This document shows, in pieces, positions 46,223-48,661 of a stretch of 64,000 bases of DNA. Source of the DNA: Candidatus Versatilivorator sp. (GTDB taxonomy: Bacteria > Acidobacteriota > Terriglobia > Versatilivoradales > Versatilivoraceae); contig OZ242296.1 of the NCBI GenBank assembly GCA_965207735.1, positions 2,432,001 through 2,496,000 of the forward strand, written 5' to 3'. A model generated the notes under the pieces. The model ran no database searches. It was not told the origin of the DNA and saw only the letters and a list, made by a program, of their open reading frames with translations. Within the stretch, counting starts at the first letter, position 1. Each line of letters begins with the position of its first letter. The position numbers and the translations under genes were made by a program.

Positions 46223-46458
46223 GGCTCTGATTGGCTGTGGGAAGAGGTCCCGGCACCGGCGTTCCCGCGGGACCGGCCACTGCAAGAAAGGGGGACATTA
46301 TAGGTCGCCGGCAGACACGATCACAAGGTCCCTGCCCGATCCCCTGGCAAACCCCAACCCCGCTCTGCCGTGCGGACCATGCGACAGCGTGACAACGCAT
46401 TCTTATGGGCGATCGGGAGCAAGAACGATGTCCGGCTTGTCTGAAACAACCCCGCAGT

Positions 46459-47853
46459 TCAAGCGGCTGCGATTTGTGGAACCAGGTTGAAACCAAGAGA
46501 CTTAGCAGCATCTTTGAGGCCCGCGAGGCGTCGTCGCCGGAACCGGTCCTCGTAGCACGCTTCCCCGATGTCGATGTAGTCCTGGCCGTAGCGCAGCATG
46601 CGGTAGACGAGAACGGCCAGCCGGCGGGCCATGGAGAAGACGGCGACGGTCCATCCCTTGTGGCGGGCCTTGCGACGGAAGGCGGCCCCCAGAGCGGTCT
46701 TGGAGTGCTTCAGAGAGACGGCTGCCATGCGCAGGACGGCGGCGGCGCGAGTAGACCCGGTGCTGTTGGCCTTCTTGTAGTGGAGCGGCTTGCCTGCGGA
46801 GACGGCCGTTTTTGGAGCCAGGCGCAGCCAGGATACAAAGTGCTTCTCCGAGGGGAAGGCCGTCAGGTCGAGGCCGGCCTCAGTCAGCAGGGTCAGGGCC
46901 GCTTCGGTGCCGATGCCGTCGATGCGCGTCAGATCGACTCCGGCAAAGCGCCACAGTTCGGTGCGCAGGTGGTGCCCACCGCGGCGGCGAATCGCCTTTT
47001 CCTTGATCGCATTGGGATGCTTCGGCACGGGCTGGTCGTGGCGCTCCACCGGTTGCAGCGCCTGGATTTCCTCCAGGAAGCGGGCCTCATAGGCCGCAAT
47101 CTCGCGTTGAGTCATGTCGTAGAGCTTCAGCGCCGACTTGAGGTTGAACAGATGCTCTTCTCGCCAGTTGCCTCTGAGGTGCTCGGCAAACTCCCGGCTG
47201 GACTTCTTGCACCGTCGGTCCCGCAGACCCGCCAGACGGACCGGGTCCCGTTCTCCGTTGACAATCGCCCGCACGATCGCTATCCCCGTCTGACCGGTCA
47301 GATCGGTGACCGCACGATGGATCTGGACGTTCATCTGATCCAGCGCCTTCTGCATCCACTGCACAAAGCGGGTACTCTCGGCCCCCAGAGTGCTCAGTTG
47401 CCGGTGCAGGGTCCGAACCCGGACGATCGCCTCGTGCGGACGGAAGGATCCCCGCAGCAAGCCGCAACTGTGCAGCAACTGGATCCACTGGCAGTCCCGC
47501 ATGTCGGTCTTGCGGCCCGGAACGTAGCGCAACTGCCGGGCGTTGACCAGCAAGACCTCGATGCCGCAGGACTCCAGCAGTTCGTAGAGGGGAATCCAAT
47601 ACACGTTGGTGCTCTCCATCGCCACCGACTCCACCCCTTGCTCCAGCAACCAGTCGGCCAGTTGCTGCAGTTGCTCCATGGTGGTGCCGAAGGTGCGCAC
47701 GTTCGGCTTCCCTGGGGTCACCTCCAGAGCGCACACCCAGTGCTCCCGACTCCCCAGGTCGATCCCTGCCACCTCGGGGTGGATCCGCGACAAGGCTGTC
47801 GAACGGCTGCGCTTCTTCTTCGTCTTCGTGTTGACTTTCCTGCTCTTTTGCAT
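46459..47853 (-). CDS. IS110 DEDD recombinase/transposase
   Basis: GID, MES, KTDxxD RuvC-like DEDD residues; IDGIG and SAGK in the C-terminal domain; SD GAGGAGG. Confidence 0.96.
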   Translation of the reverse strand: MQKSRKVNTKTKKKRSRSTALSRIHPEVAGIDLGSREHWVCALEVTPGKPNVRTFGTTMEQLQQLADWLLEQGVESVAMESTNVYWIPLYELLESCGIEVLLVNARQLRYVPGRKTDMRDCQWIQLLHSCGLLRGSFRPHEAIVRVRTLHRQLSTLGAESTRFVQWMQKALDQMNVQIHRAVTDLTGQTGIAIVRAIVNGERDPVRLAGLRDRRCKKSSREFAEHLRGNWREEHLFNLKSALKLYDMTQREIAAYEARFLEEIQALQPVERHDQPVPKHPNAIKEKAIRRRGGHHLRTELWRFAGVDLTRIDGIGTEAALTLLTEAGLDLTAFPSEKHFVSWLRLAPKTAVSAGKPLHYKKANSTGSTRAAAVLRMAAVSLKHSKTALGAAFRRKARHKGWTVAVFSMARRLAVLVYRMLRYGQDYIDIGEACYEDRFRRRRLAGLKDAAKSLGFNLVPQIAAA

Positions 47854-47874
47854 GAGATTGGCCTCCTCGGCGGC

Positions 47875-48060
47875 GATCACTCCGGCCCGAGTTGGCGTGG
47901 TCGTTCGGATTCTTGTCTTGAGGAGAGCTTCCCGGGAAGCCTCACTAATGAATGATGACCTGCTCGGACCCAGACTTGCCTTGGGGCACGGGGCACCAAT
48001 GCTGGAACGGGGCGTAGCTGCCGGAGTCTCGCCAGGTGCTTATTCTTTCACAATGATCCG
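47875..48060 (-). ncRNA. Candidate IS110 bridge/seek RNA
   Basis: About 200-nt non-coding upstream end with two stem-loops containing internal loops (GCACC/GGUGC; GGUC/GACC with GCUUCC/GGAAGC) and 7-nt matches to the element end and the flank. Confidence 0.6.
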
Positions 48061-48108
48061 TTGTTTCACCCTCGAATGATCCGCCCGTCGTGGGGGGCGG
48101 GGGCGGGA

Positions 48109-48258
48109 CTTGTCTGAAACAACCGACAAAAGACAAAAGAAAAAGACTTATCCACGAAGGGGCGCGAAGGACCACGAAGGGCCACGAAGGCGCTGAGGTT
48201 GGCCGCGACGGGGTGCCAAGTTCGCGAAGGGTTGATCGATTTCCGATTGTTTCACTCT
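48109..48258. mobile_element. Non-autonomous IS110-ended unit (MITE) 1, 150 bp
   Basis: CTtgtctgaaacaacc...gattgtttcactCT; internal CACGAAG repeats. Confidence 0.75.
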
Positions 48259-48291
48259 ATGTATGATCCGCACGGCAGGGCGGGGACCCGG

Positions 48292-48441
48292 CTTGTCTGA
48301 AACAACCGACAAGAGACAAAAGAAAAAGACTTATCCACGAAGGGGCACGAAGAACGACGAAGGGGCACTAAGGCGCTGAGGTTGGCCGCGACGGGGTACC
48401 AAGTTCGCGAAGGGATGATCGTTTTCCGATTGTTTCACCCT
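48292..48441. mobile_element. Non-autonomous IS110-ended unit (MITE) 2, 150 bp
   Basis: Close copy of 48109-48258 with the same termini. Confidence 0.75.
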
Positions 48442-48661
48442 CGTTTGATCCGCCCCGGGGTAGGGTGGCGTGGGCAGGGCTTGCGGGCAAAGGGCGCCGG
48501 TCGGCGTTCAGAGAAGTCGCCCGCCGGCAAGAAGTGCAAGTCTGCCAAGATCCGAGACGCTCGGCGATTGCCTGTGCTAAGCTTCCCTCCCGAATCGAAG
48601 CCGGAGTTGGCCAGCCCGAATCGCTCCGGAATTTTCGAGTCCCAACCCCGCGAGCAGTCCC

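Follow-up and report, generated by a model that had tools for sequence, protein, structure and literature searches.

The window, a 64,000-nucleotide stretch of Candidatus Versatilivorator sp. DNA (contig OZ242296.1, positions 2,432,001 to 2,496,000 of the forward strand), carries an IS110-family element with a recombinase gene and a long upstream non-coding region, and directly beyond its left end two gene-less MITE units in tandem (Table 1). Searches with domain models recovered PF01548 (E = 2.4e-23) and PF02371 (E = 8.6e-12) in the recombinase, and NF033542 scored 215.6 bits against a cutoff of 140; the RuvC DEDD domain and the Tnp domain with its conserved serine place the protein in the IS110 family. 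Among 12 recombinase homologs, D32, E80, D117 and S352/G354 are invariant and D120 is nearly so. From what is known of the family, we take D32, E80, D117 and D120 to be the DEDD residues and S352 to be the catalytic serine. A phmmer search of the recombinase against the PDB gave no match, and a profile search reached IS621 and ISCro4 (E = 2e-11 and 7e-10), the nearest solved relatives, which were also the top Foldseek matches of an AlphaFold model whose low confidence (pLDDT 60.9) restricts it to fold look-up. As had been predicted from the letters, the long non-coding region lies 5′ of the recombinase gene, with 255 bp upstream and only about 22 bp after the stop codon, and the proposal that an IS110 recombinase is guided by a bridge-type RNA encoded upstream of it is upheld by the domain matches and by the guide covariation described below.

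Table 1. Features of the element and of the adjoining MITE units (window positions)
Feature	Position	Strand	Remarks
IS110-family element	46436..48108	-	1673 bp and one shared CT core; present 10 times in the genome
Right end, CT core (46436-37) and right-donor site	46436..46442	+	Read by the 3′ guide of the donor loop
Sub-terminal inverted-repeat arm, right end	46442..46450	+	From the sequence; GTTTC/GAAAC kept in homologs
IS110 recombinase gene	46459..47853	-	464 aa; PF01548 + PF02371, NF033542
Predicted bridge RNA	47868..48033	-	Closing stem and two internal-loop arms; target loop 5′, donor loop 3′
Right donor guide AGACAAG	47912..47918	-	Matches 46436-42; covariation
Left donor guide AUCAUUC	47950..47956	-	Non-canonical; matches the internal site 48074-80
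Right target guide (47982-47975) and handshake-like dinucleotide	47973..47982	-	198/215 vs 0.37 shuffled
Left target guide	48000..48008	-	Weak, canonical register; 87/215 vs 0.25 shuffled
Sub-terminal inverted-repeat arm, left end	48060..48068	+	About 40 bp inside the end
Internal donor site	48074..48080	+	Putative pseudo-bottom strand for the left donor guide
DNA hairpin	48081..48100	+	6-bp stem 48081-86/48095-100, between internal site and terminal arm
8-nt terminal arm and true left-end core CT (48109-10)	48101..48110	+	From the arm length in homologs and the empty site in G002
Target and first passenger, a gene-less MITE unit with the same two ends	48109..48291	+	IS sits on the MITE right-end motif
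Second MITE unit	48292..48481	+	Ends at CT core 48480-81 on unique DNA

The copies of the element in this genome (G000), which are 97-100% identical, define its ends. On the stop-codon side, all 10 diverge from one another from the CT at 46436-37, and on the other side all 10 run 40 bases beyond the end originally proposed, through 48108, so that the bounding cores are CT 46436-37 and CT 48109-10. The segment 48069-48108 is carried by every copy, and a 1-nt length variant within it tracks the IS subtype (4 of 10 copies). At the orthologous empty site in another genome (G002), the left flank is joined straight to the MITE, without the IS and without 48069-48108. One contig from DNA run X4 makes the same skip (46451 to 48140), and the IS contigs in DNA runs X4 and X7 continue to 48086. 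Since the stretch 48074-80 is carried in all copies and is absent from the empty site, it is element DNA and not the target flank for which the original prediction had taken it. The 10-bp IS1111-type junction derived from that assignment was found neither in this genome nor in 130 sequences (129 homologous loci and the window copy), its inner core (CT 48071-72) is missing in 10 of the 43 homologs and is not fixed in position, and the mixed IS110/IS1111 architecture is unsupported, the left end being CT 48109-10. The sub-terminal GAAAC/GTTTC repeats that had been noted are present; of the repeated motif AATGATCCG, both copies were found (48052-60 and 48075-83), and the one at 48052-60 is not conserved (for example in L015 and L017). 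An alternative model with a CCG core was ruled out, as the AG/CT core is the exact point from which the flanks of homologs differ.

Homolog locus L004 contains a head-to-tail dimer whose junction has the predicted form. Related IS copies lie head-to-tail in L004, L127 and L141 and thereby provide natural donor-type junctions in the chromosome. Among the contigs listed for the eight sequencing runs, no full-circle joint was seen. One RNA-library contig (run X15) joins an internal CT of the recombinase gene (47358) to the right-end core at 46436, which can be read as a partial circle or as an insertion into the recombinase gene.

Homologs were gathered from 49 genome loci and the best 80 of 587 metagenome loci and were divided into their parts by a regular-expression parser that is blind to guide-site identity. 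The loci with 41% identity or more yielded 73 elements, of which 54 were non-redundant after identical guide sets had been dropped, 43 with a parsed left end and 47 with a parsed right end. Two registers (the L011 group and L051) were set by hand, and L040 (genome G031), which falls under the identity cut-off, was excluded from every count. The consensus fold of 43 aligned RNAs consists of a closing stem and two internal-loop arms; 97% of cells are paired, 19 of 30 pairs show double-sided changes (none of 500 shuffles reached as high), and none of the slid controls approaches the observed pairing. The two stem-loops with internal loops that had been drawn earlier are therefore borne out by the family consensus, although the single sequence of the 211-nt region folds no better than its shuffles (z = 0.68). 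No Rfam model matched the RNA region at E<=1, and a scan for sigma-70 consensus promoters and terminators found none. Contigs from RNA libraries span the region, as sequence that carries no start, end, strand or level; in runs X17 and X19 the coverage is deeper over the loop region, which in contig data is not readable as expression. A covariance model of the RNA (R1) matched only the 10 IS copies in the genome, with 150 of 1858 candidates scored.

Three of the four guides covary strongly with their DNA sites (right target guide, right donor guide and AUCAUUC; z = 12-15), and 17 distinct guide cores and 32 exact matches among 43 elements are represented. In the target loop (loop 1), the right target guide on the 3′ strand agrees with the target side of the core at 198 of 215 positions (shuffled 0.37), and the 5′ strand acts as a canonical left guide (z = 5.9), agreeing with the other flank at 87 of 215 positions (shuffled 0.25) at offset 0 only. 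The target loop thus carries one covarying guide per strand around a dinucleotide core, as in IS110 elements. The nucleotide after the right target guide is also the one with which the left end begins in 39 of 43 homologs, and it resembles the handshake pair of IS621 (PMC11208158). In the donor loop (loop 2), the right donor guide on the 3′ strand agrees with the right end at 232 of 235 positions (shuffled 0.51); it equals the element's own end in all 10 genome copies, an A/G variant included, and all 11 of its changes in independent tree pairs are mirrored in the DNA. The exact identity of AGACAAG (47912-18) with 46436-42 reported at the outset accordingly marks a guide that reads the right end together with its CT core. 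Cross-controls are slightly raised (target guide against right end 0.47 vs 0.39, donor guide against target 0.45 vs 0.38), which is consistent with the 13 of 43 elements that target right-end-like motifs.

The left donor guide departs from the published layout. AUCAUUC on the 5′ strand of the donor loop agrees with the internal site at 231 of 258 positions (shuffled 0.50), whereas agreement with the canonical position beside the core is at chance (0.12-0.19) at all four offsets; its agreement with the downstream flank is likewise at chance at four of four offsets. Among 21 independent tree pairs, 19 of 29 changes in this guide are concordant at the internal site and 1 of 29 at the canonical position, and the internal site changed alone at 6 positions. 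Distant held-out loci (26 of 27 parsed) gave a best left-donor match of 5.0 vs 4.0 of 7 (z = 6.0) in a set that keeps two mis-registered rows and whose subfamilies are not independent. With regard to the donor rule of IS621, in which the guides read opposite strands of a contiguous junction, the right guide conforms and the left guide does not. The match of AUCAUUC to 48074-80 is exact, as the original prediction had it, and covaries, and it belongs to a second donor guide instead of a target guide; the actual target guide, at 47975-82 in the other loop, had been overlooked. That both matches fall on one hairpin, regarded earlier as non-canonical, follows from both being donor guides and is the layout of a canonical donor loop. 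The reservation that 7-nt matches may arise by chance does not hold for these two, given their agreement with the DNA, and the covariation check proposed at that time turned out positive across 43-47 non-redundant elements (90-99% vs 37-51% shuffled). Mismatches between guide and site did not clearly favour wobble pairs (5 vs 2 within the five inner positions).

Several observations concern the evolution of the guides. At RNA position 47982, 8 nt before the right target guide ends, and at its equivalents in homologs, the base equals the target base in none of 43 elements, though the target is usually conserved there, and it is possibly a flipped-out base. Judged by eye, natural reprogramming is visible in L017-L025, L071, L089-L093, L097 and L100, whose targets include heptamer tandem repeats and a REP-like palindrome; one target among these homologs looks like a tRNA 3′ end. 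A sub-clade (L140, L143-L146, L112 and L115) has an AA core and an A-rich target guide and is inserted at an A6 run. The hosts of these A6-run insertions are presumably IS3-type elements.

The distance between core and internal site reveals a consistent geometry. An arm of 8 nt is present in 42 of 43 homologs and is followed by a 12-21 nt hairpin, in which 239 of 258 cells of the first six pairs are Watson-Crick (0.64 in shuffled sequences). The internal site abuts the hairpin stem; since the arm is fixed and the hairpin is free in length, its linear distance inside the left end varies from 20 to 29 nt across homologs (28 nt here). Beyond it lie 5-7 nt and then GAAAC, complementary to the GTTTC found 7 nt inside the right end. 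Both donor guides are complementary to the same strand (window +), and folding of this strand at the end-to-end junction would bring the internal site opposite the terminal arm, in the role of a bottom strand. The folded plus strand would restore the IS621 layout, with the left guide on the bottom, the right guide on the top and a ready-made bubble. In 38 junctions folded in silico, the repeat stem had a mean probability of 0.80 and the guide sites were mostly open (0.32 and 0.41 paired); the folding energy of the junction is not exceptional (z = -1.07), the fold has no strand preference (22 of 38), and no bias in replication direction (replichore) was detected (78 vs 74). The repeat core is compensated in distant members (GAAAC/GTTTC, CAAAC/GTTTG in ISPpu9 and TGAACC/GGTTCA). 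Bases flanking the repeat covary family-wide (82 of 152 vs 0.33), yet only 3 of 25 are concordant in independent pairs. In 133 genome copies, the four core-proximal nucleotides of the displaced arm vary freely, and the internal site occurs in three main variants, in which it is also retained in the left ends of MITEs that lack the RNA gene (150 of 1858 candidates scored in the RNA scan). A subgroup at about 38% identity keeps the guide match and has little apical stem.

The target loop matches CT-TGYCT with weak contacts to the left flank, and this is also the element's own end motif: the right target guide differs from the right donor guide by a single base, which makes the element self-targeting. 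All 10 IS copies sit on end-like motifs, namely MITE ends, while the bare 7-mer occurs 1438 times in the genome; the preference for end motifs may be inflated by purging of insertions in genes. The motif CTTGYCTGAAACAA, with one mismatch allowed, is found 268 times in 147 clusters, where it precedes a MITE body of about 180 bp (209), a 60-bp mini unit (18), a third body (14), the IS (10) or other DNA (17), and a left end stands immediately before it in 116 of the 268 cases. Tandem modules that have these ends and no genes, a trait resembling ISPpu9, are therefore present, and the genome holds about 200 such MITE passengers, in none of which the RNA model found a match (150 of 1858 candidates scored), its only matches being the 10 IS copies. 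Among 141 parsed left ends, 28 adjoin DNA that lacks the full motif and in nearly all cases starts with CTT(G/A)(C/T)(C/T)T (one of the 28 rows is probably a false parse).

Building on the ends, target, guide-site covariation, DNA hairpin, self-targeting and RNA-less passengers described above, we propose that the donor is recognised as a folded single strand and that only top strands are exchanged, a reading to which we assign a probability of roughly 0.6 from comparative sequence data. The RNA would be transcribed from the integrated copy by an internal promoter, and the recombinase would copy out the plus strand as a circle; excision of a single-stranded circle has been reported for IS621 (10.64898/2026.08.31.748434). 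At the end-to-end junction, the plus strand would fold into the inverted-repeat stem, an open bubble and the apical stem, and the internal site would take the part of the "bottom strand" with which the left donor guide pairs. The top strands alone would then be exchanged with the duplex target at CT, and replication would finish the insertion; exchange of the pseudo-bottom strand would yield hairpin-capped broken arms. A precedent is the integration of top-strand ssDNA by CazIS110-1 via top-strand joining (10.1101/2025.10.25.684509). The IS621 handshake pair forms after top-strand exchange (PMC11208158). Because the right-end motif is the target, every insertion at an end already present would rebuild a full donor junction and lead to tandem arrays, and the enzyme and its RNA would move the gene-less MITEs in trans.

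Other explanations of the same data have to be weighed against this folded-donor reading. The same guides might act on a double-stranded circle, in which the RNA-protein complex and supercoiling extrude the hairpin locally and no free single-stranded intermediate is integrated. This is unlikely in our view, if worth keeping in mind: CazIS110-1 favours a dsDNA donor at one junction (about 20-fold better; 10.1101/2025.10.25.684509), replichore bias is absent, and the weak covariation of repeat flanks in independent pairs suggests sites read by protein instead of a pairing stem, whereas about 45 bp of GC-rich duplex would have to be melted and held by two guides of 7-8 nt, and the repeat core is compensated in distant members. 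The internal site might also be an accessory contact (for end-tethering, repression of the internal promoter or insertion immunity, for example), with a half-match exchange carried out by the right donor and right target guides only. Half-match recombination is documented for IS621 (10.64898/2026.08.31.748434), a mutant of the ISPpu9 palindrome still circularises (PMC12288879), the left target guide is weak (0.40), and the RNA is predicted to start just downstream of the site. We nevertheless think such a role decidedly unlikely, given that the fixed 8-nt arm and a site abutting a compensated stem correspond to the place of the left-donor bottom strand, that deletion of the ISPpu9 A box abolishes circles (PMC12288879), and that the site is kept in the left ends of MITEs found without the RNA gene in the same scan of 150 of 1858 candidates.

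The two remaining explanations concern the element itself. An IS1111-like element bounded by the inner CT (48071-72), whose ends meet in a 10-bp junction and whose target guide is AUCAUUC, was the original prediction, and could describe the ancestral state; the inner CT is found in 33 of 43 homologs, and the spacing resembles the 7- and 3-bp extensions of IS1111 (10.1101/2024.04.26.591405). All 10 copies include the disputed segment and the empty site lacks it, the junction was never found, the inner CT is missing in 10 of 43 homologs and shifts in others, AUCAUUC does not covary with the tested flank, and a separate target guide exists, all of which leaves this reading very improbable. As for 7-nt matches that arose by chance in what is merely a 5′ UTR, the single-sequence fold score, the absence of an Rfam match and the absence of a sigma-70 consensus promoter would fit, but the covariation of three guides, the 32 of 43 exact matches with 17 guide cores and the compensated RNA fold reduce its probability almost to nothing.

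Judged by its ends and modules, the element is most likely of the type of ISPpu9, an IS110-group element of Pseudomonas putida KT2440 that is accompanied by MITEPpu9 (ssr9) (PMC12288879, PMC8450116). ISPpu9 has a 43-bp left "A box" with an internal palindrome ending in CAAAC and a 16-bp right "B box" of the form GTTTG-N5-AG (PMC12288879), it forms modular circles (PMC12288879, PMC8450116), and its internal promoter starts transcription about 84 nt into the 5′ region (PMC8450116). Circles were still obtained by PCR from the A-box palindrome mutant and none from the A-box deletion; the exact palindrome mutation is given in a figure of that report (PMC12288879). Both elements have an AG core on the coding strand, a palindromic A box of about 43 bp, a short B box and a common 5-bp repeat (PMC12288879, Table S2), as well as a long structured upstream 5′ region, gene-less modules with the same ends and tandem copies. 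They differ in that ISPpu9 targets REPs and the element described here its own end motif, and in that the MITEs here number about 200 and carry no RNA gene in the scan of 150 of 1858 candidates. In the accessible text of the ISPpu9 reports, no mapping of guides was found and Ssr9 is treated as regulatory (PMC12288879, PMC8450116).

A MITEPpu9 copy lies on a P. aeruginosa plasmid (L147:2501-2850; NZ_CP124659.1). By eye, the target guide in its ssr9 region equals both the flank upstream of this copy and the B-box end of ISPpu9, the donor guide equals its own B′ end, 7 of 8 nt match the A′ box just past the palindrome, and loop motifs are shared with the bridge RNA; covariance model R1 did not match Ssr9 in this copy at E<=1. 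We treat as a lead the reading of ssr9 as a full bridge RNA aimed at the ISPpu9 right end, whose left donor guide is likewise distal. The wider picture would be that a widespread IS110 clade integrates a folded ssDNA donor in the manner of attC by one strand exchange, that the target guide here has converged on the element's own end to give self-building, cassette-like arrays with about 200 passengers, and that Ssr9 is a second bridge RNA aiming MITEPpu9 at the ISPpu9 right end; as a single proposition this is plausible, with the odds slightly against all of its parts holding together.

Integron attC cassettes recombine as a folded single strand. The present element would work like the attC cassettes (PMC2727003) in its use of a folded single strand as the site, single-strand exchange and tandem arrays; it has no tyrosine integrase, its recognition is RNA-guided, and the resemblance is mechanistic only. 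With IS621 and ISCro4 it shares the RuvC-DEDD and Tnp-serine domains, an upstream RNA with a target loop followed by a donor loop, the CT core and a handshake-like base (PMC11208160, PMC11208158, PMC13626964; guide names LTG, RTG, LDG and RDG and the handshake are those of PMC13626964 and PMC11208158). It differs from them in recombinase identity (17-19%) and length (464 vs about 330 aa) and in having its CT core on the non-coding strand; its donor guides read one strand at sites 28 nt apart instead of opposite strands of a 14-bp duplex, and its promoter is predicted to be internal, whereas theirs is made at the junction. Like IS1111 and its seekRNA, it has sub-terminal inverted repeats with one arm 7 bp from the end (10.1101/2024.04.26.591405). 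Unlike IS1111, which has repeats of 11-13 bp located 7 and 3 bp from the ends and usually a downstream non-coding region, it has its RNA upstream, a repeat of 5-9 bp and the other arm about 40 bp from the end, and lacks the 10-bp junction. Top-strand copy-out and integration would be shared with CazIS110-1 (10.1101/2025.10.25.684509), and ISPpu10 also uses a DNA stem-loop as a recognition layer, located in the target and not in the donor (10.64898/2026.03.19.712850). Guide pairing across a donor fold-back is not described in the accessible text for CazIS110-1 or ISPpu10 (10.1101/2025.10.25.684509, 10.64898/2026.03.19.712850), and no description of a fold-back donor was found in a literature search that took in few subscription journals, few figures and few bioRxiv supplements, Fig. 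S12 of 10.64898/2026.10.21.760802 not being among them.

Bridge recombinases serve as tools for genome editing, and in the model published for them the donor guides read opposite strands of a short duplex. If the donor is indeed folded, donor prediction would change, as the site would fall outside windows placed around the core, and a programmable route for the insertion of ssDNA cargo would be available. A folded donor also bears on the open question of copy-out versus cut-out, and would account for two features of ISPpu9 that have lacked an explanation, the A-box palindrome and the Ssr9 module. The self-targeting guide would explain the build-up of tandem MITE arrays in this genome, on which other mobile elements then land.

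The MITE bodies (window 48130-48250 and others) contain a purine run and repeated CACGAAG units within the body of about 180 bp. They also contain TTATCCAC, which we take to be a DnaA-box-like motif. Inside the MITE body that adjoins another IS copy there is a group II intron (RF02003, RF00029; L148:303-2271, G000:C1:2816800-2818770). The MITE bodies after several end motifs (C1:4080359, 3823402) are interrupted at the same spot by a sequence that begins with a GCCTTTTGCAAAA-like repeat and is probably the end of another IS.
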